Shown here in pieces: positions 1 through 16,142 of a stretch of 16,142 bases of DNA (positions are counted from its first letter, which is position 1; each line of letters opens with the position of its first letter). Under the pieces are notes generated by a model, which saw nothing but the letters and a program-made list of their open reading frames with translations, was not told the DNA's origin and did not search any database. The position numbers and the translations under genes are program-made. Source of the stretch: a virus; UHGV virus genome UHGV-0156413. One strand, given 5' to 3'.

Positions 1-49
1 TACAATGCGGGTTTGAGCGGCATAAATTACCACTGAAAGCCCTTAAACG

Positions 50-1063
50 TTACTCTACTGTGGACACTGTGTGGACACTCTCGGCCTCAGTACCACCTCT
101 TAGCGGATTAAGAGAAATGGCGTCCTGAAGGTACTCTGGCGCAAAATGAGCGTAAACCATAGTTTGCTCAATCCGCGTGTGACCTAGTATCCGTTGTAGC
201 GTGATAATACTTCCTCCATTAATCATGAAATGAGTGGCAAAGCTGTGCCTTAGTGCATGTGTGGCTTGCCCCATTGGCAAATCCGGTTTTATTGCTTTCA
301 TTGTTCGTCTGAAGCGAGGGTAATCAGCATCAGGGAATAAAAAACCTCGTTTGTTATCCGCGATCATTTTGGCAACAGCCTCTGAGATCGGGACGGTGCG
401 TGGTTTGTTTGTTTTCGTTTTAACAAACGTGACGCGGTTATGGATGATATTTTCTGCTTTCAAACGAGCTGCTTCTCCCCAACGTGCTCCAGTACTCAGG
501 CAAAGAATCGCAATCTTTTTGTTGTCGCCGTCAAGAGCAGCAAGCAGTAAGGCAATTTCTTCCTGCGTGAGATAGCCTGTGTCTGGTTTTTCCTCCTTAA
601 GCCTTTTTGTCCCTCTGATAGGGTGCTCACCAAAGAATAACTCCGCTTCAATCAGGGCTGTAAACATGCCGCTAATACATGTTAAATCACGATTGATACT
701 CGAAGGTTTAATACCCTGACTTCTTCGGGTGGCGCAGTACTGGCTGATAAGCGATTTCGTAATTTGAAATGCGCATGGGTCATTCGTTATTTTTGTGAAG
801 ATTTCAATTTTTCCAAGATTAGATTTCCCATGCTCTTCGTGTTTACCCTTTAAATCCCACCAGATCTGTGTCAGCTCCGACAGACGTCGCTTGTCTGTTG
901 GTTTTGATAGCCATTCTTTATTGTGGTGGTTGTACAACGTGTATTTCTCGAAAGCGACAGCTTCGCTTTTCTTATCAAACTTCCTACGGATGCGTTTTCC
1001 ATTACGTCCAGTAGGGCGGATGTCCACTTCATATCGACCATCATCGAGTTTTTTGATTGCCAT
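50..1063 (-). CDS. int: Tyrosine site-specific integrase (P2 Int-like)
   Basis: 337-aa ORF; C-terminal region HALRHSFATHFMINGG...LGHTRIEQTMVYAH fits the tyrosine-recombinase catalytic signature. Lies downstream of the repressor on the same strand, as in P2. No att core recognised in nt 1-49. Confidence 0.93.
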   Translation of the reverse strand: MAIKKLDDGRYEVDIRPTGRNGKRIRRKFDKKSEAVAFEKYTLYNHHNKEWLSKPTDKRRLSELTQIWWDLKGKHEEHGKSNLGKIEIFTKITNDPCAFQITKSLISQYCATRRSQGIKPSSINRDLTCISGMFTALIEAELFFGEHPIRGTKRLKEEKPDTGYLTQEEIALLLAALDGDNKKIAILCLSTGARWGEAARLKAENIIHNRVTFVKTKTNKPRTVPISEAVAKMIADNKRGFLFPDADYPRFRRTMKAIKPDLPMGQATHALRHSFATHFMINGGSIITLQRILGHTRIEQTMVYAHFAPEYLQDAISLNPLRGGTEAESVHTVSTVE

Positions 1064-1178
1064 CAGAAAACCCTCCGAGTGGTGTGTTTTTTTGCGACTA
1101 CTAATCGCTTTTTTCGTGGTGGCTCAAATTTAGCCACCAATAGTAGGCACTTGTGATGAATATATTCACGATGAATTG

Positions 1179-1478
1179 TTAACCAGTCTTTTGACCGGAG
1201 TGGGGCGACGTTGTTTCGTTTTGCCCAAAGTGTGCGAGAGCGGGCGCAATTTGCCCGGACTCAGGAGCGATCTGATTGGTCATGAACCATAAAGTGTATT
1301 TGGTGAATTGTGGGGTCTGCAGGATGTTCATCATGACATCTGTTGGAGGTGTTGAACGACCACTTTCATAGTAACTCAGCGTGCCATACGGAACCCCTGT
1401 TAAATCAGCAAGTTGTTGTCTGCTCAAATACTCTGATTTTCGCATTAAGACTATCTTCTCGCTTATCGTGTTTGACAT
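1179..1478 (-). CDS. C: Immunity repressor (P2 C-like, helix-turn-helix)
   Basis: 99-aa ORF with N-terminal HTH-like segment (LSRQQLADLTGVPYGTLSYYESG); divergent from cox and upstream of int, the P2 arrangement. Length matches P2 C as I recall it. Confidence 0.88.
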   Translation of the reverse strand: MSNTISEKIVLMRKSEYLSRQQLADLTGVPYGTLSYYESGRSTPPTDVMMNILQTPQFTKYTLWFMTNQIAPESGQIAPALAHFGQNETTSPHSGQKTG

Positions 1479-1592
1479 GGTGTTTAGATCTCAATAGTAT
1501 TTAGTTTAGATGTAGATTGTTTAGTGCTTGGATGTGGGCACTAAAAGGCATTATAAGACATTAAACGCAATTCATGAGGGCTAGAGGACGAC
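1479..1592. promoter_or_regulatory. Lysogeny/lytic switch region between C and cox (expected repressor and early promoters plus operators)
   Basis: 114-bp AT-rich spacer between divergent C and cox; direct repeats GTTTAGATGT (1504-1513) and GTTTAGTGCT (1519-1528) are candidate repressor half-sites. Exact promoters not resolved. Confidence 0.5.
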
Positions 1593-1868
1593 ATGAGCAA
1601 GCAAGTAACACTCATGACTGATGCGATTCCTTATCAGGAGTTCGCAAAACTAATAGGAAAATCGACAGGAGCGGTTCGTCGGATGATCGATAAAGGAAAG
1701 CTGCCTGTAATTGATATGACCGATCCACAATCAGCTTCAGGTCGTGCAGGTGAATATTGGGTATACCTTCCGGCATGGAATAACGGACTAAAACTGGCTT
1801 ATGAAAGCCGCCCTAAAGAGATTCGTGACGGCTGGTTGATGTGGTTAGGTCTCGGTGAACCACGTTAA
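1593..1868 (+). CDS. cox: Cox-like excisionase / early-operon regulator
   Basis: 91-aa ORF, first gene rightward of the switch, opposite to C. Size and position match P2 Cox; start codon preceded by GAGG. Confidence 0.88.
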   Translation: MSKQVTLMTDAIPYQEFAKLIGKSTGAVRRMIDKGKLPVIDMTDPQSASGRAGEYWVYLPAWNNGLKLAYESRPKEIRDGWLMWLGLGEPR

Positions 1869-1878
1869 GGAGAACCGT

Positions 1879-2049
1879 ATGAATGAGCCTCGTTGTATTG
1901 CTCAGTTACTGCGTAACGAAAGCCCCAGGGCGATTGACTTCACCATCACCCACGGTAAGGGGCGTAAGGGAATCATTATCCGCACCAAAAAACAGAGTCC
2001 GTTAAAAAAGGCTCTGACCTTTCTGAAAAGCCGGAGGGTATGGAAATGA
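1879..2049 (+). CDS. Small early-operon hypothetical protein
   Basis: Internal ATG at 1879 preceded by AAGGAG (about 1865-1870); basic 56-aa product; sits between cox and B where P2 has a small ORF. Function unknown. Confidence 0.45.
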   Translation: MNEPRCIAQLLRNESPRAIDFTITHGKGRKGIIIRTKKQSPLKKALTFLKSRRVWK

Positions 2050-2546
2050 CAGTGATGACGCTCAATCTCGTTGAAAAACAGCCAGCAGCTATGCGCCGGA
2101 TAATTGGCAAGCATCTTGCCGTCCCTCGCTGGCAGGATACATGTGATTATTATAATCAGATGATGGAGCGCGAACGGCTAACGGTTTGCTTTCATGCACA
2201 GTTAAAACAGCGTCACGCAACGATGCGTTTTGAAGAAATGAACGACGTCGAACGTGAACGACTGGTTTGTGCAATTGATGAATTGCGTGGCGCATTCTCA
2301 AAACGCCGTCAGGTTGGTGCAAGTGAGTATGCATATATTAGTTTTTTAACAGTCAGTCAGCGTCGCACTTTATTTATGCACGCACGACTGACTGAAAAAG
2401 AATTCAACCAGCCATACTGGCGAATTAATGAAGAATCATGTTACTGGCGTGATGCTTTGTTCCGTGCATTACGTGAATTATTCAGTCTGTTTGAGTATGC
2501 ACCGACAATTCTGACGTCGGTAAAACCAGAGCAATATCTGCATTAA
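2046..2546 (+). CDS. B: Replication protein B (helicase-loader-like, P2 gpB-like)
   Basis: ORF in the P2 B position; start at 2046 (MTVMTLNLVEK...) preferred over 2040 on Shine-Dalgarno spacing (GGAGGG at about 2029-2034). Length close to P2 B as recalled. Confidence 0.85.
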   Translation: MTVMTLNLVEKQPAAMRRIIGKHLAVPRWQDTCDYYNQMMERERLTVCFHAQLKQRHATMRFEEMNDVERERLVCAIDELRGAFSKRRQVGASEYAYISFLTVSQRRTLFMHARLTEKEFNQPYWRINEESCYWRDALFRALRELFSLFEYAPTILTSVKPEQYLH

Positions 2547-2567
2547 ATAATTAACCAGAGTTTTTAA

Positions 2568-2595
2568 CGCACTTAATCGTGCGGGGCTTCTTTTT
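2568..2595 (+). terminator. Weak hairpin plus T-run between B and the next ORF (possible attenuator/terminator)
   Basis: Stem CGCAC (2568-2572) / GTGCG (2579-2583), loop TTAATC, followed by GGGCTTCTTTTT. Short stem, so weak. Confidence 0.25.
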
Positions 2596-2609
2596 GCCTG
2601 GAGAAAGTC

Positions 2610-2834
2610 ATGCATACAGTTTCTGAAAATCAGTGCGGTATATACGCATTACTGCTGCAACAGGCCAGAACCGAAGCACAGGCCGACGCTGCGACGCGCT
2701 TTTCTTCTCATCTTGACGCCATGATTCGCCACATCACAAAGGCGGAGTTATCCCGCGTGGAGATAGTCGAGCTGCTCAGTCAGGAGTCGGAAAAATTTCA
2801 CAATATCGGATTGTCTCGCGGGAAGGTGCTTTGA
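2610..2834 (+). CDS. Hypothetical early protein (P2 orf80 position)
   Basis: 74-aa ORF with GGAGA upstream of ATG; stop overlaps next start (ATGA), suggesting translational coupling. Confidence 0.6.
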
Positions 2835-3136
2835 TGTCCTGTTCTCATTCAGTTGTATTACTGAATAACGCCTTAAAAATCGCCGTTATGAAAAATGGCG
2901 ATTTGTCTCTTATTCAACTTTGTCTTGATAAAGAAAAACGCGACATAACTGAATCTGTTATCGCGATTTATCAGAATGAATTAAACCTCCTGTCTGATGT
3001 GGTCAATTTACTTGTTAAACGCGCTGTATTCCACAAGCAAATTTCATCCGTGGATGAGCTGACAAAATTAACGACAGAAATCGCCAGCTATTGCGCTGAT
3101 GAATTCAAGAAACTGAACGATAAAAGGAGCTGGTAA
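2831..3136 (+). CDS. Hypothetical early protein (P2 orf81 position)
   Basis: 101-aa ORF, start overlapping upstream stop, same strand and operon context. Confidence 0.6.
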
Positions 3137-3360
3137 TGCCGGACAACGTAGATTTTATTCAGGAACAACAGGCTGAATTACTGGAGCGCCAGATTAACGC
3201 GGCAAGGGTAAAACATTGCGGTGTTTCTTCGCTGGTTTGCGAAGAGTGTGATGCGCCAATACCTGCTGCCCGTCGTGCGGCTTATCCGTCAGCCACGCGT
3301 TGTGTTTCCTGTCAGTCAGTCTTTGAAGCAAAAAACAAACATTACCGGAGAACGGCATGA
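3136..3360 (+). CDS. DksA/TraR-type C4 zinc-finger protein (P2 orf82 position)
   Basis: 74-aa ORF with C-x2-C-x17-C-x2-C (CEEC...CVSC), typical of TraR/DksA-family zinc fingers in phage early operons. Confidence 0.7.
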   Translation: MPDNVDFIQEQQAELLERQINAARVKHCGVSSLVCEECDAPIPAARRAAYPSATRCVSCQSVFEAKNKHYRRTA

Positions 3361-3632
3361 GTATTCGTATTGAAATTGGCGAACGTTATGTCGTTACCAG
3401 TGACAGCTTTCAGTTTATTCTCCACGAGAAAAAGAGAGCGGAAAGCGGTAAAAACGCCGGTCAGGAATGGCTGTCGGTGGTTGGTTATTACCCGAAATTA
3501 AGCCAGCTCGTTTCCGGCCTGATGCATCACGATATTCTGACCGGAAGCGCAAAGTCTTTTGCTGATTTAAACGCGCAGGTTGAGCAACTCAGCAAGCGTT
3601 GTTCAGAGGTTTTTGGCTCATATGGCAGTTAA
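3357..3632 (+). CDS. Hypothetical early protein (P2 orf83 position)
   Basis: 91-aa ORF, start overlaps upstream stop; its 3' end overlaps the start of A. Confidence 0.6.
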   Translation: MSIRIEIGERYVVTSDSFQFILHEKKRAESGKNAGQEWLSVVGYYPKLSQLVSGLMHHDILTGSAKSFADLNAQVEQLSKRCSEVFGSYGS

Positions 3633-5898
3633 AGCCTCCGGGCGTTGTGTCCCTCCGTCAGCATTTGCCGCAGGCACCGGTAAGACGTTTACCGGTGCTT
3701 ATGCATGGAACGCGCCACGCGAGGCCGTCGGGCGCGAAAGACCCCTTACACGTGACGAGATGCGTCAGGTGCAAGGTGTTTTATCCACGATTAACCGCCT
3801 GCCTTACTTTTTGCGCTCGCTGTTTACTTCACGCTATGACTACATCCGGCGCAATAAAAGCCCGGTGCACGGGTTTTATTTCCTCACATCCACTTTTCAG
3901 CGTCGTTTATGGCCGCGCATTGAGCGTGTGAATCAGCGCCATGAAATGAACACCGACGCGTCGTTACTGTTTCTGGCAGAGCGTGACCACTATGCGCGCC
4001 TGCCTGGAATGAATGACAAGGAGCTGAAAAAGTTTGCTGCCCGTATCTCATCGCAGCTTTTCATGATGTATGAGGAACTCAGCGATGCCTGGGTGGATGC
4101 GCATGGCGAAAAAGAATCGCTGTTTACGGATGAGGCGCAGGCTCACCTGTATGGTCATGTTGCTGGCGCTGCACGTGCTTTCAATATTTCCCCTCTCTAC
4201 TGGAAAAAATACCGTAAAGGGCAGATGACCACGAGGCAGGCATATTCTGCCATTGCCCGTCTGTTTAACGATGAGTGGTGGACTCATCAGCTTAAAGGCC
4301 AGCGTATGCGCTGGCATGAGGCGTTACTGATTGCTGTCGGGGAGGTCAATAAAGACCGTTCTCCTTATGCCAGTAAACATGCCATTCGTGATGTGCGCGC
4401 GCGCCGCCAGGCAAATCTGGAATTTCTTAAATCGTGTGACCTTGAAAACAGGGAAACCGGCGAACGCATCGACCTTATCAGTAAGGTTATGGGCAGTATT
4501 TCTAATCCAGAAATTCGCCGGATGGAGCTGATGAACACCATTGCCGGTATTGAGCGTTACGCCGCCGCAGAGGGTGATGTGGGGATGTTTATCACGCTGA
4601 CCGCGCCGTCAAAGTATCACCCGACACGTCAGGTCGGAAAAGGCGAAAGTAAAGCCGTCCAGCTAAATCACGGCTGGAACGATGAGGCATTTAATCCAAA
4701 GGATGCGCAGCGTTATCTCTGCCGCATCTGGAGCCTGATGCGCACGGCATTCAAGGATAATGATTTACAGGTCTACGGTTTGCGTGTCGTCGAGCCACAC
4801 CACGACGGAACGCCGCACTGGCATATGATGCTTTTTTGTAATCCACGCCAGCGTAACCAGATTATTGAAATCATGCGTCGCTACGCGCTCAAAGAGGATG
4901 GCGACGAAAGAGGAGCTGCGCGAAACCGTTTTCAGGCAAAACATCTTAACCGGGGCGGTGCTGCGGGATATATCGCGAAATACATTTCAAAAAACATCGA
5001 CGGCTATGCACTGGATGGTCAGCTCGATAACGACACCGGCAGGCCGCTGAAAGACACTGCAGCGGCTGTTACCGCATGGGCGTCAACGTGGCGCATCCCG
5101 CAATTTAAAACGGTTGGCCTGCCGACAATGGGGGCTTACCGTGAACTACGCAAATTGCCTCGCGGCGTCAGCATTGCTGATGAGTTTGACGAACGCGTTG
5201 AGGCTGCACGTGCCGCCGCAGACAGTGGTGATTTTGCGTTGTATATCAGCGCACAGGGTGGGGCAAATGTTCCGCGTGATTGCCAGACTGTCAGAGTCGC
5301 CCGTAGCCCGTCGGATGACGTTAACGAGTACGAGGAAGAAGTCGAGAGAGTGGTCGGCATTTACGCGCCGCATCTCGGCGCGCGTCATATTCATATCACC
5401 AGAACGACGGACTGGCGCATTGTGCCGAAAGTTCCGGTCGTTGAGCCTTTGACTTTAAAAAGCGGCATCGCCGCGCCTCGGAGTCCTGTCAATAACTGTG
5501 GAAAGCTCACCGGTGGTGATACTTCGTTACCGGCTCCCACACCTTCTGAGCACGCCGCAGCAGTGCTTAATCTGGTTGATGACGGTGTTATCGAATGGAA
5601 TGACACGGAGGTCGTGAGGGCGCTCAGGGGGGCATTAAAACACGACCTGAGAACACCAAATCGTCAGCAAAGAAACGGAAGCCCGTTAAAACCACATGAA
5701 ATTGCACCATCGGCCAGACTGACCCGGTCGGAAAGAATGCAAATTACCCGTATCCGCGTTGACCTTGCTCAGAACGGTATCAGGCCGCAGCGATGGGAGC
5801 TTGAGGCGCTGGCGCGTGGCGCGACCGTAAATTATTACGGGAAATCTTTCAATTATCAGGTCGCTGATGAGTGGCCTGGATTTTTGTTACCCATTTGA
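3622..5898 (+). CDS. A: Rolling-circle replication initiator (P2 gpA-like HUH endonuclease)
   Basis: Start taken at ATG 3622 (MAVKASG...) rather than the upstream ORF-track start. Contains HUH-like motif PHWHMMLF and tyrosine motif GYIAKYISKNIDGY typical of Rep/gpA nickases. Confidence 0.9.
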   Translation: MAVKASGRCVPPSAFAAGTGKTFTGAYAWNAPREAVGRERPLTRDEMRQVQGVLSTINRLPYFLRSLFTSRYDYIRRNKSPVHGFYFLTSTFQRRLWPRIERVNQRHEMNTDASLLFLAERDHYARLPGMNDKELKKFAARISSQLFMMYEELSDAWVDAHGEKESLFTDEAQAHLYGHVAGAARAFNISPLYWKKYRKGQMTTRQAYSAIARLFNDEWWTHQLKGQRMRWHEALLIAVGEVNKDRSPYASKHAIRDVRARRQANLEFLKSCDLENRETGERIDLISKVMGSISNPEIRRMELMNTIAGIERYAAAEGDVGMFITLTAPSKYHPTRQVGKGESKAVQLNHGWNDEAFNPKDAQRYLCRIWSLMRTAFKDNDLQVYGLRVVEPHHDGTPHWHMMLFCNPRQRNQIIEIMRRYALKEDGDERGAARNRFQAKHLNRGGAAGYIAKYISKNIDGYALDGQLDNDTGRPLKDTAAAVTAWASTWRIPQFKTVGLPTMGAYRELRKLPRGVSIADEFDERVEAARAAADSGDFALYISAQGGANVPRDCQTVRVARSPSDDVNEYEEEVERVVGIYAPHLGARHIHITRTTDWRIVPKVPVVEPLTLKSGIAAPRSPVNNCGKLTGGDTSLPAPTPSEHAAAVLNLVDDGVIEWNDTEVVRALRGALKHDLRTPNRQQRNGSPLKPHEIAPSARLTRSERMQITRIRVDLAQNGIRPQRWELEALARGATVNYYGKSFNYQVADEWPGFLLPI

Positions 5899-6158
5899 GT
5901 GAAAATGCAGCGTGATTTTATATGCCTTTGAATGGATTATGCGAAGCGCCTCTAAGGCAGATGAGGAGCAATAGCATGCTGAAGTAGAAGGCTAAATTGT
6001 ATTGAATCGCTAGCATGTAATTTAAGGCAGCTATTTGATTCGAGTCATAAAAGAGCATCTATTTCGGCTAATAAAACCATTGCGAGTGACCTTTTGTCGA
6101 AGCATAATTCATCTCGAGCGAAGTCTTGCTAGTCTTTCATCGGAATGATGACAGGCGC

Positions 6159-6188
6159 AAAAAAACCACCCTGGCAGGTGGTTTTTTT
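6159..6188. terminator. Bidirectional rho-independent terminator
   Basis: A7-CCACC (6159-6170), loop CTGGCA, GGTGG-T7 (6177-6188): GC stem flanked by an A-run and a T-run, so a U-tract follows the hairpin in either orientation. Lies downstream of A and just 3' of the minus-strand small ORF. Confidence 0.6.
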
Positions 6189-6200
6189 GTTTGAAGCATA

Positions 6201-6314
6201 CTAAAGAATAATACTTACATGGATATTACTGACGTTTACTGACAAACCACTTGGACTACCATATGGATAGCCAAAGAGGGCCAGAACGAGAATGCAGTAA
6301 TAGCACTTCTTCAT
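6201..6314 (-). CDS. Putative small hydrophobic peptide (37 aa; not in the ORF track)
   Basis: Minus-strand ATG at 6314-6312 preceded by CAGGAGGAGAT; translation MKKCYYCILVLALFGYPYGSPSGLSVNVSNIHVSIIL then stop; terminator immediately 3'. No homology assessed. Confidence 0.3.
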   Translation of the reverse strand: MKKCYYCILVLALFGYPYGSPSGLSVNVSNIHVSIIL

Positions 6315-6884
6315 ATCTCCTCCTGTAAGCAGAGGGCAATTTCCGCCGATATATGCGCTTCTAAGGCGGAGTTAATATTTAGCGAAGTCTTGCCCTGAAA
6401 TAATGCTCTGTTTAAACGCAAAGTGATCTGGCATATCACCGAACAGAGAGCCTGAACAACACAACATATAGTATGTCGTTGTTTCTGGTTGCATTTTATG
6501 TTGTGTAATACTGGTTTTGCATCAAGGATGTTTGAGCTTTTTTTGATATAGCTCAAAGTAAAAAGCAGGGACTACGGATGATAAGGTATTGAAAGCAATG
6601 TAAATTTTTTAAAGTTATTGGTGGCTAAAAAATGCACGATTTCAATGTGGCGGACTTAAATAAGCAATTAAAAAAGTCATAAATATCACTAAAATCATGG
6701 TGTTACGTTTTTTGTGGGAGCTGCGGTGACGCTTAAGTTGATTTGTCATTAAATAAGCCGTGCATGCAACAAGTGAATGTTTTTGCATGCGTCGGGGATG
6801 CCCGTTCCCGCTGCTTGCGGTCAGAGCTGGTGCGGATCCATAGTATCTATGCAACTGCATTAAAACCGCCACATGAAGCGGGCG

Positions 6885-6903
6885 GGCGAGGCGGGGAAAG
6901 CAC
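6885..6903. other. Putative cos site (19-nt cohesive-end sequence of P2-type phages)
   Basis: GGCGAGGCGGGGAAAGCAC at 6885-6903 matches the P2 cohesive-end sequence as I recall it; sits between A and Q as expected for a circularly permuted prophage. Memory-based, not searched. Confidence 0.55.
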
Positions 6904-6939
6904 CGCGCGTAAGATAAACAGAAGAGCGAAGGATTATGG

Positions 6940-6968
6940 TTGAGTATTTGTGTTTTTGTACATATGAT
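6940..6968 (+). promoter_or_regulatory. Candidate sigma70 promoter for the cargo operon
   Basis: TTGAGT (6940-6945), 17-bp spacer, TATGAT (6963-6968); followed by inverted repeat GTGTTT...AAACAC (about 6975-6997) and a GGAG Shine-Dalgarno before ATG 7010. Confidence 0.3.
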
Positions 6969-7009
6969 AAAAAGGTGTTTACGCTTAAAAACACATCAAA
7001 GGAGATGAT

Positions 7010-8311
7010 ATGGAAAATATAAAGATTGATAAGTTTCTCACTATTCAAAAAGTTGATATTCCTCTTAAGAAAGTGAATATATTTATTGGGCCTCAGGCAC
7101 AGGGGAAAAGTGTCATTGCAAAGCTAATAAAATATTTTAAAGATTATCCTATGGATATACTACGAGCTTCAACAGAGGGTAAAACTAAAAGAGATATATT
7201 GAAGGAGCAAAAGAATAAGTTTAGTAAAATTTTCCCTCAGCAGTATTGGGCTGATGATGAGTTTTTTATTGAGTATAGTAATAAGCACTATTGGGTGCGG
7301 ATTACTAATCGAAAAAATAGCAAAGGGTCATTGAAAATAGCCCTTTCTGAGAATTTAACGAAGACGATTGCTAAACTTCGTTTGATTGTACGAAAGGATT
7401 TAGATGAAAATATTGAGAATTCACTTGCAGAAAGCGTTACGAGAAGGCGTAAACGCGGAATTGAACATGAATTGCGAGTATGTCTTTCTCTAGGATTGTT
7501 TTCAGAACCAGAAACAAAGCTTGAAAGTGTTTTTTATATCCCCGCAGGGCGCTCTTTTTTTGCTAATTTGCAAAAAAATGTGTTTTCATTTTTATCCAGT
7601 AGTATAGAAATTGACTACTTTTTGACAGAGTTTGGTTCTCTGTATGAACAAACAAAAAAATTATTTAACCAAGATTACATGATTAGGATGCTTAGGGGGG
7701 CTGTGCCTCAACATGTTAATAAACTTGTGGAGGAGTTGATTTGCGGAAAATATATAACAGAAAAGGGTGAGGATTTTATTCGTCATGCTGCTAAGAAGAC
7801 GAATCTTAACAACTCGAGCTCAGGGCAGCAAGAAGCGTTACCAATGGCTTTAATGTTATCCTCATGGCCGTATTTACAGTCTATGACTAGTAAGAGTTTT
7901 ATTATTGAGGAGCCGGAGGCTCATCTGTTTCCTTCTGCCCAAGCAAAAGTTGTATCTTTAATAGCCTCAGCGTATAACCAAGCAGAAAGCTATTGTAGCT
8001 ATACAATAACAACACATAGTCCATATATTCTAAGTGCCTTCAATAATTTGATTCAAGCAGGTAATGCATTGAAGTGTATTAAGGGCAAGAATAATACCGA
8101 TATCGAACGCTTATATAAGCTTGTTCCAGAGTCTCAAATTATTGATTTTGATGATGTGACAGCTTATATGGTTAATGCTGGGAAAGTGACGGAAATACTG
8201 GATTCCGAACTAAATATATTAGATGCGAATGAAATAGATAGGATTTCCTCTATTTTTTCAGAGACTTTTGATGCATTGATTGATATCGAATATTCGGCTA
8301 CTGTGAATTAG
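7010..8311 (+). CDS. ABC-type ATPase of the AAA_21/OLD-like family (candidate defence ATPase)
   Basis: 433 aa. Walker A GPQAQGKS (aa 27-34), signature-like SSGQQ (aa 269-273), Walker B/D-loop FIIEEPEAHLFP (aa 297-308), H-loop TTHSP (aa 334-338). AT-rich codon usage unlike the phage backbone. Confidence 0.85.
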   Translation: MENIKIDKFLTIQKVDIPLKKVNIFIGPQAQGKSVIAKLIKYFKDYPMDILRASTEGKTKRDILKEQKNKFSKIFPQQYWADDEFFIEYSNKHYWVRITNRKNSKGSLKIALSENLTKTIAKLRLIVRKDLDENIENSLAESVTRRRKRGIEHELRVCLSLGLFSEPETKLESVFYIPAGRSFFANLQKNVFSFLSSSIEIDYFLTEFGSLYEQTKKLFNQDYMIRMLRGAVPQHVNKLVEELICGKYITEKGEDFIRHAAKKTNLNNSSSGQQEALPMALMLSSWPYLQSMTSKSFIIEEPEAHLFPSAQAKVVSLIASAYNQAESYCSYTITTHSPYILSAFNNLIQAGNALKCIKGKNNTDIERLYKLVPESQIIDFDDVTAYMVNAGKVTEILDSELNILDANEIDRISSIFSETFDALIDIEYSATVN

Positions 8312-8319
8312 GTGATTGA

Positions 8320-8757
8320 ATGTGTAAAAATTGCAAAGGAAAAACAAAAAATAAAATCATTGTGCTATCTGATAAAGGAACGTCAACGCAATTGTCAGTC
8401 ACAAATGATAATGAGTTGGAAGTTGAGCATAAGTTAATAGATGGTTGCGCTATTGTTGTTGGAGAGCGGTGTGATCATTATTTGAAGATTTATAACAATC
8501 AGGATGTTTCACATCTTTTTGTTGAACTTAAAGGAAGTGATGTTGAAAAAGCTGTTAAACAGATAGTGACAACTTTAAAGTCAGGTGTGATTAATGTAGG
8601 TGCTAAAGAAAAAAAACATGGTGCTATTGTTAGCACTAGGAATCCGCTAAACTCACCAGAAACCAATAGGTTAAAGAAGAAAATTCTTTTGAGTGACGGA
8701 GTGAATTTGCATTTCTATAAAATGAAGGCGCAGCAAAAAATAACTTCTTTTACATGA
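8320..8757 (+). CDS. Small partner protein, possible PD-(D/E)xK-like nuclease or effector (hypothetical)
   Basis: 145 aa; starts 8 bp after the ATPase stop with AGGTGA upstream. N-terminal CxxC (C2, C5); candidate catalytic core D52 ... E69-L-K71 (ERCDH ... FVELKG). Assignment is tentative. Confidence 0.7.
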   Translation: MCKNCKGKTKNKIIVLSDKGTSTQLSVTNDNELEVEHKLIDGCAIVVGERCDHYLKIYNNQDVSHLFVELKGSDVEKAVKQIVTTLKSGVINVGAKEKKHGAIVSTRNPLNSPETNRLKKKILLSDGVNLHFYKMKAQQKITSFT

Positions 8758-8770
8758 AGTGTTCTCTTGT

Positions 8771-8794
8771 ACAGGCATGCATTTGCATGCCTGT
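8771..8794. terminator. Perfect palindrome between convergent cargo operon and Q (terminator or protein-binding site)
   Basis: ACAGGCATGCA tt TGCATGCCTGT (11-bp arms); a short T-run (ATCTTTTA) follows about 8 nt downstream on the plus strand. Confidence 0.35.
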
Positions 8795-8860
8795 CGTGTA
8801 ATCTTTTACACTATATTTGTGTTGGTTCTAATCTTGTTATGTGTTTGTTTCGGTGATGGG

Positions 8861-9880
8861 TCATAATGAATAAGTTCGAAAGCGAAATACATCTTCGCCA
8901 ACCCAACAGTTAATTTCTTTACATCGCTCTTGGAGGAACGTTAGCTCGTTGCGTACAAAGACTTGTGCTGCTTTTGTTACATCTCCAAATCCTCCTGTGT
9001 TGTTGGGCATCATTCCTATCATTTGGGGAGGCACGCGATGAGCACTCATTAGATCTTCAGCACTTGCTTTTTTGATATTAAAAAAATCGTCCTTCGTTGC
9101 CACTTCACTGAGCGGGATAATTTTAATGCCGTCGGCTTTCCCCTGCGGGGCATAGAGAAACAGATTTTTAAAGTTATTGCGGCCTTTCGACTTAACCATG
9201 TTTTCGCGAAGCATTTCGATATCGTTGCGATCCTGCACGGCATCAGTGACGTACATGATGTATCCGGCATGAGCGCCGTTTTCGTAATACTTGCGGCGGA
9301 ACAGCGTGGCCGACTCATTCAGCCAGGCAGAGTTAAGGGCGCTGAGATATTCGGGCAGGCCGTACAGCTCCTGATTAATATCCGGCTCCAGCAGGTGAAA
9401 CACGGAACCGGGCGCGAAGGCTGTCGGCTCGTTGAAGGACGGCACCCACCAGTAAACATCCTCTTCCACACCACGGCGGGTATATTTTGCCGGTGAGGTT
9501 TCCAGCCTGATAACTTTACCGGTGGTGCTGTAACGCTTTTCCAGAAACGCATTACCGAACACCAGAAAATCCAGCACAAAGCGGCTGAAATCCTGCTGGG
9601 AAAGCCACGGATGCGGGATAAATGTCGAGGCCAGAATATTGCGTTTGACGTAAATCGGCGAGCTGTGATGCACGGCAGCACGCAGGCTTTTTGCCAGACC
9701 GGTAAAGCTGACCGGCGGCTCATACCATCTGCCGTTACTGATGCACTCGACGTAATCCAGAATGTCACGGCGGTCGAGTACCGGCACCGGCTCACCAAAG
9801 GTGAATGCTTCCATTTTCGGGGCGCTGGCGGTGATTGTTTTTGCCGCAGGTCGCGGTGTTTTCCCTTTTTTCTTGCTCAT
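8861..9880 (-). CDS. Q: Portal protein (P2 gpQ-like)
   Basis: 339-aa ORF immediately downstream of and overlapping the large-terminase stop (ATGA); conserved P2 Q-P arrangement; size close to P2 Q as recalled. Confidence 0.9.
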   Translation of the reverse strand: MSKKKGKTPRPAAKTITASAPKMEAFTFGEPVPVLDRRDILDYVECISNGRWYEPPVSFTGLAKSLRAAVHHSSPIYVKRNILASTFIPHPWLSQQDFSRFVLDFLVFGNAFLEKRYSTTGKVIRLETSPAKYTRRGVEEDVYWWVPSFNEPTAFAPGSVFHLLEPDINQELYGLPEYLSALNSAWLNESATLFRRKYYENGAHAGYIMYVTDAVQDRNDIEMLRENMVKSKGRNNFKNLFLYAPQGKADGIKIIPLSEVATKDDFFNIKKASAEDLMSAHRVPPQMIGMMPNNTGGFGDVTKAAQVFVRNELTFLQERCKEINCWVGEDVFRFRTYSL

Positions 9881-11292
9881 CAGTAAAACTCCAGAATGGT
9901 GGATGTCAGCGGAGTGCTGATACCGGCGGTGAGTGGCTCATTTAACAGGGCGTGCATGGTTGCCCAGGCGAGGTCGGCGTGGCTGGCTTCCTCGCTGCGG
10001 CTGGCCTCATAGGTGGCGCTGCGTCCGCTGCTGGTCATGGTCTTGCGGATAGCCATGAACGAGCTGGTGATGTCGGTGGCGCTGACGTCATATTCCAGAC
10101 AGCCACGGCGGATGACGTCTTTGGCCTTGAGCACCATTGCGGTTTTCATTTCCGGCGTGTAGCGGATATCGCGCGCGGCGGGATAGAACGAGCGCACGAG
10201 CTGGAACACGCCGACACCGAGGCCGGTGGCATCAATACCGATGTATTCGACGTTGTATTTTTCGGTGAGTTTGCGGATGGACTCCGCCTGGGTGGCAAAG
10301 TCCATGCCTTTCCACTGGTGACGCTCAAGTATTCTGAATTTGCCACCGGCCACCACCGGCGGTGCCAGCACCACGCATCCGGCGCTGTCGCCACGGTGTG
10401 ACGGGTCGTAACCAATCCATACCGGGCGGGAGCCGAACGGATTTGCGGCAAACGGCGCGTAGTCTTCCCATTCTTCCAGCGTGTCGACCATGCAGCGTTG
10501 CAGCTCCTCGAACGGGAACACCGATGCCTTGTCGTCAACAAATTCACACATGAACAGGTTTTTAAAATCGTCGGCGCTGTTTTCGCGTTTGAGCTGCTCA
10601 ATGTCGAACAATGTGCAGCCGCCTTTCAGGGCGTCCTCAATGGTGACAATCTGCCGCCACTGGCCGTCCGCACAGAGAAGACCACCGGCAAGGGCGTTAT
10701 GACTGACGTCGATTTCCACACGTTCGGCGGCGCTGGCGCGTCCCCGGTTGAACAGTTCACCCGACCAGAACGGGTAGGCGTCGTGCGCCAGTGTGGACGG
10801 GGTGGAGAAATAGGTCGAGCGCAGGTGACTCTGTGAGGCCATACCTGATGCCACCTTACGCAGTACCTGAAAATTCGGGATCCAGAAAATCTCGTCGACG
10901 TACAGGTCGCCGTTATGGCTCTGTGCGGTGTTGGAGTTGGTGCCGAGAAAAATCAGTTTTGCGCCGTTATTGCCCAGGACAATCGGGTCACCGGTCAGGT
11001 CAACGTCAACCAGCCGGGCAAAGGCGATGATGTATTCGCGGAACACATACGCCTGCGTTTTACTGGCCGACAGAAAAATCTGGTTATGACCGGTTTTCAG
11101 GGCGCGCAGCAGCGCCTCGCGGGAAAAATAAAACGTCGCGCCAATCTGGCGGGATTTCAGGATATCGCGGATGCGGTGCTCAAGCCCGGCGCGATACCAG
11201 TGCAACTGATATTCGAAAGACTGCTCAAAGAAAATCTGCTCCAGCTTTTCGATGGCCTCGTCACTGAAAAAATTCTTTTTCGGTTTGCCGCA
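9880..11292 (-). pseudogene. P: Large terminase subunit (P2 gpP-like), 5'-truncated
   Basis: Reading frame open from 11292 down to 9880 (about 470 codons) with no in-frame ATG at its 5' end; the frame runs straight into the opposite-strand O remnant. Contains deviant Walker-A-like KSRQIGAT. P2 P is about 590 aa as recalled. Confidence 0.7.
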
Positions 11293-12017
11293 TTAACCTG
11301 GAACATCTGCGCGGCATCCTGCCTGACGGTATTTTTAAGCGTTATGGCGATGTGGTCGAACTGAAGGCCGAAAAGATTGACGATGATTCGGCGCTGAAAG
11401 GCAAATGGGCGCTGTTTGCGAAAATCACCCCGACCGATGACCTTATCGCGATGAACAAGGCCGCGCAGAAGGTCTATACCTCAATGGAAATTCAGCCGAA
11501 CTTTGCCAATACCGGCAAATGTTATCTGGTGGGTCTGGCCGTCACCGATGACCCGGCAAGCCTCGGCACGGAATACCTGGAATTCTGCCGCACGGCAAAA
11601 CACAACCCCCTGAACCGCTTCAAATTAAGCCCTGAAAACCTGATTTCAGTGGCAACGCCTGTTGAGCTGGAATTTGAAGACCTGCCTGAAACCGTGTTCA
11701 CCGCCCTGACCGAAAAGGTGAAATCCATTTTTGGCCGCAAACAGGCCAGCGATGACGCCCGTCTGAATGACGTGCATGAAGCGGTGACCGCTGTCGCTGA
11801 ACATGTGCAGGAAAAACTGAGCGCCACTGAGCAGCGCCTCGCTGAGATGGAAACTGCCTTTTCCGCTCTTAAGCAGGAGGTGACTGACAGGGCGGATGAA
11901 ACCAGCCAGGCATTCACCCGCCTGAAAAACAGTCTCGACAGCACCGAAAGTCTGACCCAGCAGCGCCGCAGCAAGGCCACCGGTGGTAGCGGTGACGCCC
12001 TGATGACGAACTGCTGA
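11268..12017 (+). pseudogene. O: Capsid scaffold protein (P2 gpO-like), 5'-truncated
   Basis: Frame open from 11268 (just after an in-frame TGA at 11265-11267) with no ATG before GTG 11352; N-terminal residues of the P2 O protein (about 284 aa as recalled) are absent. Confidence 0.7.
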
Positions 12018-12075
12018 CCGGCGTCAGCCAGTCCGGGCAAACCTTCACGATTAACCCTTAATTTCAGGAAAAACT

Positions 12076-13149
12076 ATGCGCCAGGAAACCCGCTTTAAAT
12101 TTAATGCCTACCTGTCCCGTGTTGCCGAACTGAACGGCATCGACGCCGGTGATGTGTCGAAAAAATTCACCGTTGAACCGTCGGTCACCCAGACCCTGAT
12201 GAACACCATGCAGGAGTCCTCTGATTTTCTGACCCGCATCAACATTGTGCCGGTCAGCGAAATGAAAGGGGAAAAAATTGGTATTGGTGTCACCGGCTCC
12301 ATCGCCAGCACCACCGACACCGCCGGTGGCACCGAGCGTCAGCCGAAGGACTTCTCGAAGCTGGCGTCAAACAAGTACGAATGCGACCAGATTAACTTCG
12401 ATTTTTATATCCGCTACAAAACTCTTGACCTGTGGGCGCGTTATCAGGATTTCCAGCTCCGTGTCCGTAACGCCATTATCAAACGCCAGTCCCTTGATTT
12501 AATCATGGCCGGTTTTAACGGCGTGAGGCGTGCCGAAACCTCTGACCGCAGCAGCAATCCGATGCTGCAGGATGTGGCGGTCGGCTGGCTGCAGAAATAC
12601 CGCAATGAAGCACCGGCGCGCGTGATGAGCAAGGTCACTGACGAGGAAGGTCACACGACCTCTGAGGTCATCCGCGTGGGTAAGGGCGGTGATTATGCCA
12701 GCCTTGATGCACTGGTGATGGATGCGACCAACAACCTGATTGAGCCGTGGTATCAGGAAGACCCTGACCTTGTGGTGATTGTGGGGCGTCAGCTACTGGC
12801 GGACAAGTATTTTCCCATCGTCAACAAGGAGCAGGACAACAGCGAAATGCTGGCCGCTGACGTCATCATCAGCCAGAAACGCATCGGCAACCTGCCAGCG
12901 GTACGCGTCCCGTACTTCCCGGCGGATGCGATGCTCATCACGAAGCTGGAAAACCTGTCCATCTACTACATGGATGACAGCCATCGCCGCGTGATTGAGG
13001 AAAACCCGAAACTCGACCGTGTGGAGAACTACGAGTCAATGAACATTGATTACGTGGTGGAGGACTACGCCGCCGGTTGTCTGGTGGAAAAAATTAAGGT
13101 CGGTGATTTCTCCACACCGGCTAAAGCGACCGCAGAGCCGGGAGCGTAA
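12076..13149 (+). CDS. N: Major capsid protein (P2 gpN-like)
   Basis: 357-aa ORF in the conserved O-N-M-L order; length equals P2 N as recalled; AGGA Shine-Dalgarno upstream. Confidence 0.93.
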   Translation: MRQETRFKFNAYLSRVAELNGIDAGDVSKKFTVEPSVTQTLMNTMQESSDFLTRINIVPVSEMKGEKIGIGVTGSIASTTDTAGGTERQPKDFSKLASNKYECDQINFDFYIRYKTLDLWARYQDFQLRVRNAIIKRQSLDLIMAGFNGVRRAETSDRSSNPMLQDVAVGWLQKYRNEAPARVMSKVTDEEGHTTSEVIRVGKGGDYASLDALVMDATNNLIEPWYQEDPDLVVIVGRQLLADKYFPIVNKEQDNSEMLAADVIISQKRIGNLPAVRVPYFPADAMLITKLENLSIYYMDDSHRRVIEENPKLDRVENYESMNIDYVVEDYAAGCLVEKIKVGDFSTPAKATAEPGA

Positions 13150-13152
13150 CCG

Positions 13153-13896
13153 ATGACGAGTCCCGCACAGCGCCACATGATGCGGGTCTCGGCAGCGATG
13201 ACCGCTCAGCGGGACGCCGCCCCGCTGCGACATGCAACTGTCTATGAGCAGATGCTGGTTAAGCTGGCCGCAGACCAGCGCACACTGAAAGCGATTTATT
13301 CAAAAGAGCTGAAGGCCGCAAAAAAACGCGAACTGCTGCCGTTCTGGTTGCCGTGGGTGAACGGCGTGCTGGAGCAGGGCAAAGGTGCACAGGATGACAT
13401 TCTGATGACGGTCATGCTGTGGCGTCTGGATACCGGCGATATTGCCGGTGCGCTGGAGATTGCCCGTTATGCCCTGAAGTACGGTCTGACCATGCCGGGT
13501 AAACACCGCCGTACCCCGCCGTACATGTTCACCGAGGAGGTAGCGCTTGCGGCCATGCGCGCTCACGCTGCCGGTGAGTCTGTGGATACCCGCCTGCTGA
13601 CGGACACCCTTGAACTGACCGCCACGGCTGACATGCCTGATGAAGTGCGCGCAAAGCTGCACAAAATCACCGGTCTGTTTCTGCGTGACGCCGGTGATGC
13701 CGCCGGTGCGCTGGCGCACCTGCAACGTGCGACACAGCTCGACTGTCAGGCAGGCGTCAAAAAAGAGATTGAACGACTGGAGCGGGAGCTGAAACCGAAG
13801 CCGGAGCCGCAGCCCAAAGCGGCCACCCGCGCCCCGCGTAAGACACGGAGCGTGACACCGGCAAAACGTGGACGCCCGAAAAAGAAAGCCAGTTAA
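13153..13896 (+). CDS. M: Small terminase / endonuclease subunit (P2 gpM-like)
   Basis: 247-aa ORF starting 4 bp after N; basic proline/lysine-rich C-terminal tail; position and size match P2 M. Confidence 0.88.
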   Translation: MTSPAQRHMMRVSAAMTAQRDAAPLRHATVYEQMLVKLAADQRTLKAIYSKELKAAKKRELLPFWLPWVNGVLEQGKGAQDDILMTVMLWRLDTGDIAGALEIARYALKYGLTMPGKHRRTPPYMFTEEVALAAMRAHAAGESVDTRLLTDTLELTATADMPDEVRAKLHKITGLFLRDAGDAAGALAHLQRATQLDCQAGVKKEIERLERELKPKPEPQPKAATRAPRKTRSVTPAKRGRPKKKAS

Positions 13897-13995
13897 CAAC
13901 CGAATGCGCCCCGCGCCAGGGCGGCACGCCGGTCAGTGAGGGTGAATCACCTGACACTGCACCGGCGTCCACCGCCCGACTTTTCAGAGGTAGTC

Positions 13996-14505
13996 ATGAT
14001 GACGCTGATTATTCCGCGAAAGGAGGCTCCCGTGTCCGGTGAGGGTACGGTGGTCATCCCGCAACCGGCAGGCGACGAGCCGGTGATTAAAAACACGTTC
14101 TTTTTTCCCGATATCGACCCGAAGCGCGTCCGGGAACGTATGCGCCTTGAGCAGACCGTCGCCCCCGCCCGTCTGCGTGAGGCCATCAAGTCAGGCATGG
14201 CGGAGACGAATGCGGAGCTGTACGAGTACCGCGAACAGAAAATTGCTGCCGGTTTTACGCGTCTGGCGGACGTCCCGGCGGACGACATCGACGGTGAAAG
14301 CATCAAAGTTTTTTACTACGAGCGCGCCGTGTGTGCGATGGCGACCGCATCGCTTTATGAGCGTTATCGCGGCGTGGATGCCAGTGCCAAGGGCGACAAG
14401 AAGGCCGACAGCATTGACAGCACCATTGATGAACTGTGGCGGGATATGCGCTGGGCGGTGGCACGTATCCAGGACAAGCCGCGCTGCATCGTGAGTCAAA
14501 TCTGA
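13996..14505 (+). CDS. L: Head completion/stabilisation protein (P2 gpL-like)
   Basis: Start taken at ATG 13996 (MMTLIIPRKEAP...) with GAGG upstream rather than the longer ORF-track start; 169 aa; about 99 bp gap after M as in P2. Confidence 0.88.
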   Translation: MMTLIIPRKEAPVSGEGTVVIPQPAGDEPVIKNTFFFPDIDPKRVRERMRLEQTVAPARLREAIKSGMAETNAELYEYREQKIAAGFTRLADVPADDIDGESIKVFYYERAVCAMATASLYERYRGVDASAKGDKKADSIDSTIDELWRDMRWAVARIQDKPRCIVSQI

Positions 14506-14708
14506 TGAAGACCTTTGCGCTACAGGGCGACACGCTCGACGCCATTTGTGTCCGGTATTACGGGCGCACTGAGGGCGTGGTTGAGACCGTGCTCGCCGCA
14601 AATCCGGGACTGGCTGAACTGGGTGCGATGCTGCCGCACGGCACCGCCGTCGAACTGCCCGATGTTCAGACCGCGCCCGTGGCTGAAACTGTCAATCTGT
14701 GGGAGTAA
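14505..14708 (+). CDS. X: Tail protein X (P2 gpX-like)
   Basis: 67-aa product from ATG 14505 (MKTFALQGDTLDAICVRYYG...), start overlapping the L stop; size matches P2 X. Confidence 0.8.
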   Translation: MKTFALQGDTLDAICVRYYGRTEGVVETVLAANPGLAELGAMLPHGTAVELPDVQTAPVAETVNLWE

Positions 14709-14711
14709 CGC

Positions 14712-15026
14712 ATGACAGCAGAAGAAAAAAGCGTTCTGTCGCTTTTCATGATTGGAGTGCTGATTGTTGTCGGCAAGGTGCTTGCCGGTGGTGAAACCAT
14801 CACCCCGCGTCTGTTTATCGGGCGCATGTTGCTCGGTGGTTTTGTCTCGATGGTTGCCGGTGTTGTTCTGGTGCAGTTTCCTGACCTGTCACTGCCTGCG
14901 GTGTGCGGCATCGGCTCCATGCTGGGTACCACTGAGCGCAGTTTTGACGGGCGAATGACGGTCACGTTAACCGGCCAGCACAACGACACCGGCCAGCCAC
15001 TTTCGTTAACCATCCCTGTGAGTTGA
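14712..15026 (+). pseudogene. Y: Holin-like ORF (P2 gpY-like N-terminus) with an unrelated hydrophilic C-terminus; probable deletion fusion
   Basis: First about 72 aa contain two clear hydrophobic transmembrane-like segments; after ...GIGSMLG the sequence becomes hydrophilic and the ORF ends 5 bp before J. Confidence 0.55.
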
Positions 15027-15030
15027 AACC

Positions 15031-15939
15031 ATGCCGATTATCGACCTGAACCAGCTACCCGCACCGGATGTGGTCGAGGAGCTGGACTTTGAAAGCATTC
15101 TCGCTGAACGCAAGGCGACACTGATTTCCCTTTACCCGGAAGATCAGCAGGAGGCGGTCGCCCGTACCCTGACACTGGAATCTGAGCCTCTCGTCAAACT
15201 GCTGGAAGAAAATGCTTATCGTGAGCTTATCTGGCGTCAGCGTGTGAATGAGGCCGCACGGGCGGTGATGCTGGCCTGTGCCGCCGGTAATGACCTTGAT
15301 GTGATTGGTGCCAATTACAACACCACGCGCCTGACTATCACCCCGGCAGATGATTCGACCATTCCGCCGACACCGGCAGTGATGGAATCTGACACCGATT
15401 ATCGTCTGCGTATTCAGCAGGCTTTTGAGGGCTTAAGCGTCGCCGGGTCAGTGGGAGCCTATCAGTATCATGGTCGCAGTGCTGACGGGCGTGTCGCGGA
15501 TATTTCTGTCACCAGTCCGTCTCCTGCCTGTGTCACCATCTCTGTGCTGTCACGTGAAAATAACGGTGTGGCATCCGAAGACCTGCTGGCTGTGGTGCGT
15601 AACGCCCTTAATGGCGAGGACGTCAGGCCGGTGGCTGACCGTGTGACCGTGCAGTCTGCCGCCATTGTTGAATACCAGATAAACGCCACGCTGTATCTTT
15701 ACCCTGGTCCCGAAAGCGAACCCATCCGCGCTGCCGCTGTGAAAAAGCTGGAAGCGTATATCACGGCACAGCACCGGCTGGGGCGCGACATCCGTCTGTC
15801 TGCCATTTATGCCGCTTTGCATGTGGAAGGTGTGCAGCGTGTCGAACTGGCTGCACCACTGGCCGACATCGTGCTCAACAGTACGCAGGCGTCTTTCTGT
15901 ACCGAATACCGCGTCGTGACCGGAGGCTCGGATGAGTGA
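15031..15939 (+). CDS. J: Baseplate assembly protein J (P2 gpJ-like)
   Basis: 302-aa ORF, length as recalled for P2 J; followed by an overlapping start for the next tail gene. Confidence 0.85.
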   Translation: MPIIDLNQLPAPDVVEELDFESILAERKATLISLYPEDQQEAVARTLTLESEPLVKLLEENAYRELIWRQRVNEAARAVMLACAAGNDLDVIGANYNTTRLTITPADDSTIPPTPAVMESDTDYRLRIQQAFEGLSVAGSVGAYQYHGRSADGRVADISVTSPSPACVTISVLSRENNGVASEDLLAVVRNALNGEDVRPVADRVTVQSAAIVEYQINATLYLYPGPESEPIRAAAVKKLEAYITAQHRLGRDIRLSAIYAALHVEGVQRVELAAPLADIVLNSTQASFCTEYRVVTGGSDE

Positions 15940-16142
15940 TTCGCGACTGCTGCCGACCGGCTCATCACCGCTTGAGGTCGCCGCCGCAAAAGCCTGTGCG
16001 GAAATTGAAAAAACGCCGGTCAGTATTCGTGAGCTGTGGAACCCGGACACCTGTCCGGCAAATCTGCTGCCGTGGCTGGCGTGGGCGTTTTCGGTCGACA
16101 GGTGGGATGAAAAGTGGCCGGAAGCGACAAAACGCGCCGTTA
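15932..16142 (+). CDS. I: Baseplate/tail protein I (P2 gpI-like), 5' part only (runs off the window)
   Basis: ATG at 15932 overlaps the J stop; open frame to the window end (MSDSRLLPTGSSPLEVAAAKACAEIEK...). Confidence 0.75.
   Translation, partial: MSDSRLLPTGSSPLEVAAAKACAEIEKTPVSIRELWNPDTCPANLLPWLAWAFSVDRWDEKWPEATKRAV

Follow-up and report, generated by a model that had tools for sequence, protein, structure and literature searches.

The 104-aa open reading frame (ORF) at positions 14712..15026 (+ strand) of the window, the whole 16,142-base stretch of virus genome UHGV-0156413 that was analysed, is, as judged by its alignment to phage P2, an in-frame deletion-fusion of the P2 genes Y and W (Y'-'W) and not a new kind of gene. 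In it, Y residues 1-72 are joined in frame to W residues 84-115, and the W stop codon is kept. The reading favoured here, with a probability of roughly 85%, is that the window derives from a defective P2-like prophage carrying two real deletions produced by illegitimate recombination, the Y'-'W ORF being the fusion scar of one of them.

The window was compared with the annotated P2 reference genome (NC_001895) by megablast and blastn. It is a P2-like genome in the prophage permutation, collinear with P2 in gene order and 97.6-98.9% identical to it at the nucleotide level, and the anatomy of the element can be read directly from the aligned blocks. Positions 1-5882 correspond to P2 24413-30294 and include int, C, cox, orf78, B, orf80-83 and A, and the right cohesive end of P2 (cos) is found at 6856-6903. 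Positions 9060-11288 correspond to P2 401-2629 (Q, and P minus its 5' end), 11285-14928 to P2 3289-6932 (O minus its 5' end, N, M, L, X and the first 217 nt of Y), and 14928-16142 to P2 11189-12403 (the last 99 nt of W, J and the start of I). The intact tail gene X (14505..14708, +) lies directly upstream of the chimeric ORF. Downstream are the intact baseplate gene J (15031..15939, +), which encodes 302 aa with 100% amino acid identity to P2 J and keeps the native 4-nt W-J spacer, and the first 70 codons of gene I (15932..16142, +), where both the window and its source contig stop. As judged by tblastn, the immunity protein C is 100% identical to that of P2. The element and its intact sibling prophages (described below) differ from P2 in that orf30, old, tin and orf91 are absent, and an AAA_15/21 ATPase gene and a 145-aa gene are present between cos and Q. 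The stretch between A and Q, close to cos, has been described as a hotspot for defence genes (PMC9122126). In gene content, gene order, sequence and integration at the attP core, the element is a P2-like (Peduovirus) prophage, and the window is its left two-thirds.

The exact 104-aa protein was found on a single public contig (ENA ERZ773458, NODE_144_length_78402_cov_13.87), which has ~14x coverage. Its source would be a metagenome: with contigs ranked by length and the 144th still 78 kb, the large contigs of the assembly sum to more than 11 Mb. The window represents the final 16,142 bases of this contig, which stops inside gene I, 1.2 kb past the Y/W junction. A fork between gene I variants was considered for the contig end and rejected, as the variants do not part until 226 bp beyond it. 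The 145-aa cargo protein, which is unique through a private SNP, was used to reach 1.7 kb upstream of the window. There, the chromosomal context is seen directly: the attP core (AAAAAATAAGCCCGTGTAAGGGAGATTT) is exactly where P2 homology begins, attL is on the contig, and the core is preceded on that contig by yegR and yegS, which match those of an E. coli isolate with 100% identity. Many P2-like prophages and remnants are found at the yegR site in E. coli, and ogrK-yegZ of K-12 is a P2-like remnant at the same locus as the element. Judging from these flanks, the element is a bona fide integrated E. coli prophage at the usual yegR-proximal P2 site.

In the BLASTN alignment to P2, the chimeric ORF is split exactly between Y and W, with a single shared base. 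Y occupies 6716-6997 in P2, and the left block stops at 6932, which is 72 codons plus one base into the gene; W occupies 10940-11287, and the right block begins at 11189, exactly where codon 84 starts. The Y' segment (14712..14928, +), equivalent to P2 6716-6932, retains the start codon, the whole of TMD1 and TMD2 and the first half of TMD3, and its residues 1-72 differ from those of P2 Y by one substitution, P29T. The 'W segment (14929..15026, +) consists of the final 32 codons of gpW and the stop codon, and the tail that it encodes, TTERSFDGRMTVTLTGQHNDTGQPLSLTIPVS, is W 84-115 with one polymorphism relative to P2 that is shared by the sibling prophages. The split alignment is exact, with E-values of 0, which excludes a chance pattern; the sole element that could be attributed to chance is the in-frame register of the Y-W join, for which the prior is 1 in 3.

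A first-pass annotation, made from the sequence of the window, had called this ORF holin-like, with a change of character after about residue 72 and a hydrophilic tail that might be the 3' end of W, and had proposed alignment of the region to P2 Y and W. That alignment places a Y-W junction at 14928/14929 and bears out both suggestions, since Y codons 1-72 are followed by W codons 84-115 in the W frame and ending at the W stop. The annotation was also correct that the ORF ends just before J, but the distance of 5 bp that it gave needs amending: J starts at 15031, and 4 nt separate it from the W stop codon (15024-15026), an arrangement exactly that of P2.

The Y protein of P2 has three TMDs and belongs to the class I holins; its gene is part of the lysis module Y-K-lysA-lysB-lysC (PMC3091744). 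The chimera shares residues 1-72 with P2 gpY, including the start codon, TMD1 and TMD2, but in the chimera TMD3 is halved. Pfam Phage_holin_3_2 (PF04550) matched the chimera with an E value of 1.8e-33, but the match is confined to positions 1-73 of the 86 in the model, all of which (1-86) are matched by P2 Y; hence, the chimera does not give a full-length match to this holin profile. In the Kyte-Doolittle profile, TMD1 and TMD2 are unchanged and the third hydrophobic segment collapses after residue 72, a pattern that falls short of the three-TMD topology of class I holins. The tail of Y (residues 73-93) has a net charge of +4, whereas that of the chimera (residues 73-104) is hydrophilic and W-derived with a net charge of -1, and the positively charged cytoplasmic C-terminal tail of a Y-type holin has therefore been exchanged for a W fragment. 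The lysis-cassette setting is also missing: unlike in P2, no endolysin, antiholin or spanin genes follow the chimera, and J comes directly next. Because the rest of TMD3 and the positive cytoplasmic tail are lost, the chimera is predicted not to be a working holin. A search of the chimera for the gp25-like domain (PF04965, GPW_gp25) gave no match, the W remnant being too short to score, whereas full-length W matches this model at 2.3e-14 over residues 18-104.

Searches for proteins exactly matching the gpA and gpM of the window located prophages of the same lineage in E. coli isolate genomes. Intact copies among these siblings are L014/L024 (GCA_043776995.1, at ~222.5-253.5 kb of contig DAZIFR010000001.1), L016/L026 (GCA_964037355.1), L030, L015, L019 and L020, and the intact siblings encode P (590 aa), O (284 aa), Y (93 aa), K, LysA, LysB, LysC, R, S, V and W (115 aa). 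Over 16.1 kb, the window differs from L014/L024 by 3 SNPs (at 8656, 13542 and 14395) and the two deletions, and from L016/L026 and L030 likewise by 3 SNPs plus the deletions. The Y' segment at 14712-14928 is 100% identical to the same segment in L024, and window positions 14928-16142 are 100% identical to L024, L026 and L030 at 15159-16373. The element shares with the siblings the integrase, C, cox, B, A, cos, Q, N, M, L, X, J and I, together with the yegR/yegS/gat flank, the attachment site and the hotspot cargo between cos and Q. It differs from them in the absence of 3,383 bp, extending from the C-terminus of Y to W residue 83, and of 663 bp that include the 5' ends of P and O and pP/pO. 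Given this direct comparison, the ancestor of the element can be considered essentially known, namely an intact prophage of the sibling type.

Comparison with the intact siblings, which are nearly identical to the window, puts the sequence missing at the Y/W junction (14928..14929), where the microhomology is 1 bp (A), at 3,383 bp (L024 11777-15159), in agreement with the roughly 3 kb of expected genes reported as absent in the first-pass annotation. The loss relative to P2 is 4,257 bp (6933-11189), because the siblings lack orf30 between S and V. The genes lost can be listed directly from the alignment: the last 21 codons of Y, K (endolysin), lysA (antiholin), lysB and lysC (spanins), R and S (tail completion), V (spike) and W codons 1-83. 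As annotated in P2, the same interval further holds the O-operon attenuator/terminator and the Ogr-binding site and start site of the Ogr-dependent promoter pV. A tblastn search with all P2 proteins found no match for K, lysA, lysB, lysC, R, S, V or orf30 within the 16,142-base window, and W matched over residues 84-115 only. Thus, the deletion has taken the endolysin and lysis accessory genes, R, S and V, and the greater part of W, as had been supposed, and none is found elsewhere in the window. This exclusion covers the 16 kb seen, the part of the prophage past gene I being off the contig, and a location of K-lysABC-R-S-V further along the prophage, past gene I, is very unlikely given the P2 gene order. 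No endolysin or spanin is left in the window for any holin to release.

These data also bear on the possibility that the ORF is a natural full-length holin variant, with the lysis and tail genes relocated within the element. The 3' 98 nt of the ORF are 100% identical to the end of W in the siblings, and have the W frame, the W stop and the W-J spacer. The Pfam holin match that ends at model position 73 of 86, the absence of homologues of K, lysA-C, R, S and V from the window, and the status of the chimera as a singleton cluster, as against the ubiquitous 93-aa Y, likewise speak against it, and the probability of such a variant is practically negligible.

The second deletion junction, at 11285..11288, has 4 bp (TTGC) of microhomology and lacks 663 bp, corresponding to P2 2630-3292 and L024 7474-8136. 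In the P2 annotation, pP and pO are divergent late promoters, and the 663 bp take the start sites of both, the Ogr activator site that they share, and the 5' ends of P and O. The terminase large-subunit gene, P' (9880..11288, -), is without ~121 N-terminal residues and its promoter. The P' ORF keeps the Terminase_6N and 6C domains, and the N-terminal Terminase_5/HTH-type region of the 590-aa copies is absent. The scaffold/protease gene, 'O (11289..12017, +), is without 42 N-terminal residues, its start codon and its promoter, and matches Phage_GPO (Pfam) at model positions 61-268 only.

Both deletions would be products of illegitimate recombination, through slippage during replication or through end joining, in a prophage that was intact until recently. 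In one event, Y codon 72/73 would have been joined to W codon 84 through the single shared base with excision of 3,383 bp, and the join, by chance in frame, would have created the 104-aa chimera, which terminates at W's own stop codon, 4 nt short of J. The other event would have stripped pP and pO from the element and left the late genes 'O-N-M-L-X-Y'W-J-I without their native promoter. With pP/pO and pV all gone, this string of genes would be promoterless, and the chimera is therefore probably a silent by-product that is not appreciably expressed. A consensus scan of the + strand from 9000 to 16142, including both junctions, found no sigma-70-like promoter, which is weak evidence.

Deletion alleles of this sort are common among E. 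coli P2-like prophages. Two other members of this prophage lineage are also deleted, L013 for P->H and L017 for P->J with 9 bp of microhomology, and the remnants L005, L012, L028 and L033 at the yegR site have multiple or larger deletions. The Y-side and J-side flanks were <2.9 kb apart in eight of the 1,588 complete E. coli genomes with a match. Seven of these eight were inspected, and each has an independent deletion allele with endpoints unlike those of the present element. Strain EF7-18-58 carries a Y'->'J deletion, with an endpoint at P2 6944, 12 bp from the present junction, and a Q->pP deletion. The others are K'->'J in SW071614, lysC->J in FDN-11 and GPEC1240 (the latter by a match of the same span and score as FDN-11), lysB/C->'J in LZHX12, V'->'J in AUSMDU00002545, S'->'V in ECJXMCRH7, and L'->R in JNE23-001, in which X and the entire lysis cassette are lost. 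In these seven strains and in E24377A, lysis and/or tail genes have likewise been deleted internally, and in cryptic E. coli P2-like prophages the deletion endpoints share 1-9 bp of microhomology and the ORFs left behind are truncated or fused, as here. The two-hit pattern of EF7-18-58, Y'->'J plus a deletion reaching the pP/pO region, is particularly like that of the present element. What distinguishes the element from these prophages is its Y72/W84 in-frame junction and its P/O junction, both unique in the public sequences searched. A deletion hotspot in Y is not claimed; the two independent endpoints are 12 bp apart, and those of the other alleles are scattered.

P2-like phages often occur as cryptic prophages (PMC6823313), and the grounding and degeneration of prophages is a general process (PMC6379469). 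In defective P2-like elements, nearly identical and probably functional defence genes are found beside pseudogenised core genes (PMC13586616).

The independent truncation of Y in EF7-18-58, only 12 bp away, and an in-frame fusion that retains the Y ribosome-binding site and start codon might suggest that the Y-W chimera is a selected new gene, for example a two-TMD antiholin-like protein or an exclusion factor acting against superinfecting P2-like phages. However, an in-frame join is expected by chance in one of three cases, the allele is a singleton and shows no evidence of having spread, and the native promoters are deleted with no replacement promoter seen. The endpoints of the other deletion alleles in the region are, moreover, scattered, and some of these alleles yield out-of-frame or pseudogene products. 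Selection for a new gene is accordingly judged extremely improbable, and a fusion scar is preferred as the explanation for the ORF.

A further alternative is that the strain harbours an intact sibling prophage and that both apparent deletions were created by chimeric reads or a misjoin by the assembler. Both junction alleles are on one contig from one sample at ~14x coverage, the contig ends soon after the Y/W junction, and, the deletions aside, the element is nearly identical (3 SNPs) to intact prophages, as would be expected of such an artefact. Furthermore, the junctions have been seen only once. No record spanning the Y/W junction was found in 5,426 complete E. coli genomes, exact scans for the junction 24-mer returned 0 matches in the GTDB representative genomes, 0 in IMG/VR and 0 in JGI metagenomes, and a cluster look-up showed the 104-aa fusion and the 221-aa 'O to be singletons among ~15 billion proteins. 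The 441-aa P ORF is uninformative in this look-up, being wholly inside retained sequence and called in many genomes. Independent assemblies were rejected as a proxy for read support, as a control protein with a private SNP is equally unique to the contig. This control, the 145-aa cargo protein, is one SNP from its siblings and is likewise absent from every other source, which indicates that uniqueness reflects the sampling of the strain and not an artefact. A k-mer (de Bruijn) graph should need junction reads to join sequences across overlaps of 1 bp and 4 bp, and a minority chimeric path would be expected to be pruned or to break the contig, whereas the contig is unbranched through both junctions. 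Short-microhomology deletions of the same type also occur in closed, isolate-derived E. coli genomes. An assembly or library artefact is therefore unlikely, and the deletions appear to be biological rather than produced by assembly.

A mixed population in the sample, consisting of the intact prophage and a doubly deleted derivative of which the assembler gave only the deleted path, is a related possibility. The lineage is known both intact and variously deleted in closely related E. coli hosts, and the contig end in gene I is unexpected, both of which would fit. Against this, a co-resident intact copy at appreciable depth would branch or break the contig at both junctions, and no break is seen; such a mixture is regarded as quite unlikely.

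The preferred reading, a prophage with two genuine deletions, has clear consequences for what the element could do. It does not have the complete essential late genes and late promoters of a functional, plaque-forming P2-like phage, the missing essentials being K, R, S, V, W residues 1-83, P residues 1-121, O residues 1-42, pP, pO and pV. Having lost essential functions present in an intact relative while still integrated, it is a defective or cryptic ('grounded') prophage, and would be unable to package DNA, build tails or lyse its host. The integrase, C, cox, B, A and cos are kept, together with the defence-type cargo in the cos-adjacent hotspot. Hence, the host would be expected to keep P2 immunity and the hotspot cargo.

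The same retained features permit a more speculative reading, in which the element is not debris but a helper-dependent, mobilisable 'mini-P2', an incipient satellite that spreads its cargo. The region with attL/int, cox, C, B, A with its origin, cos and the cargo is identical to that of the siblings and ~4 kb of late genes have been shed, so that the element might be mobilised by a helper. If so, its excision, replication and packaging could be carried out by a heteroimmune P2-like phage that infects the same cell. This is considered very improbable.

Under the reading of a decaying prophage, the 104-aa ORF should be labelled a Y'-'W deletion-fusion pseudogene and not a holin, and labelling the element a defective P2-like prophage avoids it being counted as an inducible phage or as a source of a novel holin variant. 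The feature is a fresh allele of a well-known phenomenon, ordinary prophage decay. It adds a data point to the published view that E. coli repeatedly grounds P2-like prophages through loss of late, lysis and tail functions, with immunity genes and hotspot cargo kept (PMC13586616, PMC6379469). Since several copies of this nearly clonal lineage are known with different deletions, the lineage might offer a small natural series for following the tempo of prophage decay.

The prophage carries a second deletion, independent of the one that fused holin gene Y to baseplate gene W. At the junction at 11285-11288, where a 4-bp microhomology (TTGC) is present, 663 bp are missing. This loss removed the first ~121 codons of the terminase gene P, which is thus truncated and occupies 9880-11288 on the minus strand, and the first 42 codons of the scaffold gene O, which is likewise truncated and occupies 11289-12017 on the plus strand. 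The divergent late promoters pP and pO and the Ogr site were lost with the same 663 bp. The prophage is therefore doubly disabled.

The source contig ends at position 16142, 210 nt into gene I. A simple strain fork does not account for this, as P2-like phages with different versions of gene I part only 226 bp beyond the contig end. The contig could have broken at an inserted IS element, at a third rearrangement or because the sample holds a second P2-like element.

Two genes not found in P2 lie on the plus strand between cos and the portal gene Q, and encode an AAA_15/AAA_21 ATPase of 433 aa (7010-8311) and a partner of 145 aa (8320-8757) in which no Pfam domain was found. The top PADLOC matches of the pair were to the candidate system PDC-M29A (2e-31) and PDC-M29B (2e-4), and the match to AriA was weaker than these. 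The two genes probably constitute a defence pair of the known A-Q hotspot. A stretch spanning the ATPase gene is present at 99.4% identity in ETEC E24377A. The intact sibling prophages carry the pair almost unchanged, with a single substitution, SNP 8656. This SNP is private to the window (C versus A in all siblings) and affects the first base of a codon in the gene for the 145-aa protein, which is why that protein is unique among ~15 billion sequences. The intact siblings GCA_043776995.1 and GCA_964037355.1 further include, beyond the window (19739-20744 in the sibling sequences L024 and L026) and on the opposite strand, a gene for a 432-aa Ser/Thr protein kinase, which occupies the Z/fun hotspot downstream of G.

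From gene A to cos (5883-6855, ~1 kb), P2 homology is absent, and this interval holds nothing but short ORFs and a single gene call of 37 aa, with none of orf91, tin or old. On the other side of the cargo, the 3' end of Q (8861-9059, minus strand) differs from that of P2, with a product of 339 aa versus 344 aa, and P2 nucleotide homology does not resume until position 9060. This places the recombination boundary of the hotspot cargo within Q.

A two-hit pattern like that of the window was found in the unrelated closed genome of E. coli EF7-18-58 (NZ_CP068591.1), at 2731-2736 and 6654-6656 of the sequence L034 from this strain. One deletion extends from Q to the pP/pO region and the other joins truncated Y to truncated J, with a Y endpoint (P2 position 6944) 12 bp from that in the window. 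These near-matching endpoints could reflect coincidence, a mild hotspot or a selection effect. Large deletions were also found in the window's own prophage lineage, from P to H in E. coli GCA_053633415.1 and from P to J in E. coli GCA_026861335.1. This lineage shares with the window an identical gpA, the hotspot gene pair and the yegR site, and the host flank in GCA_053633415.1 is 100% identical to that on the window's contig. The different deletions thus indicate one near-clonal prophage decaying independently in related hosts.
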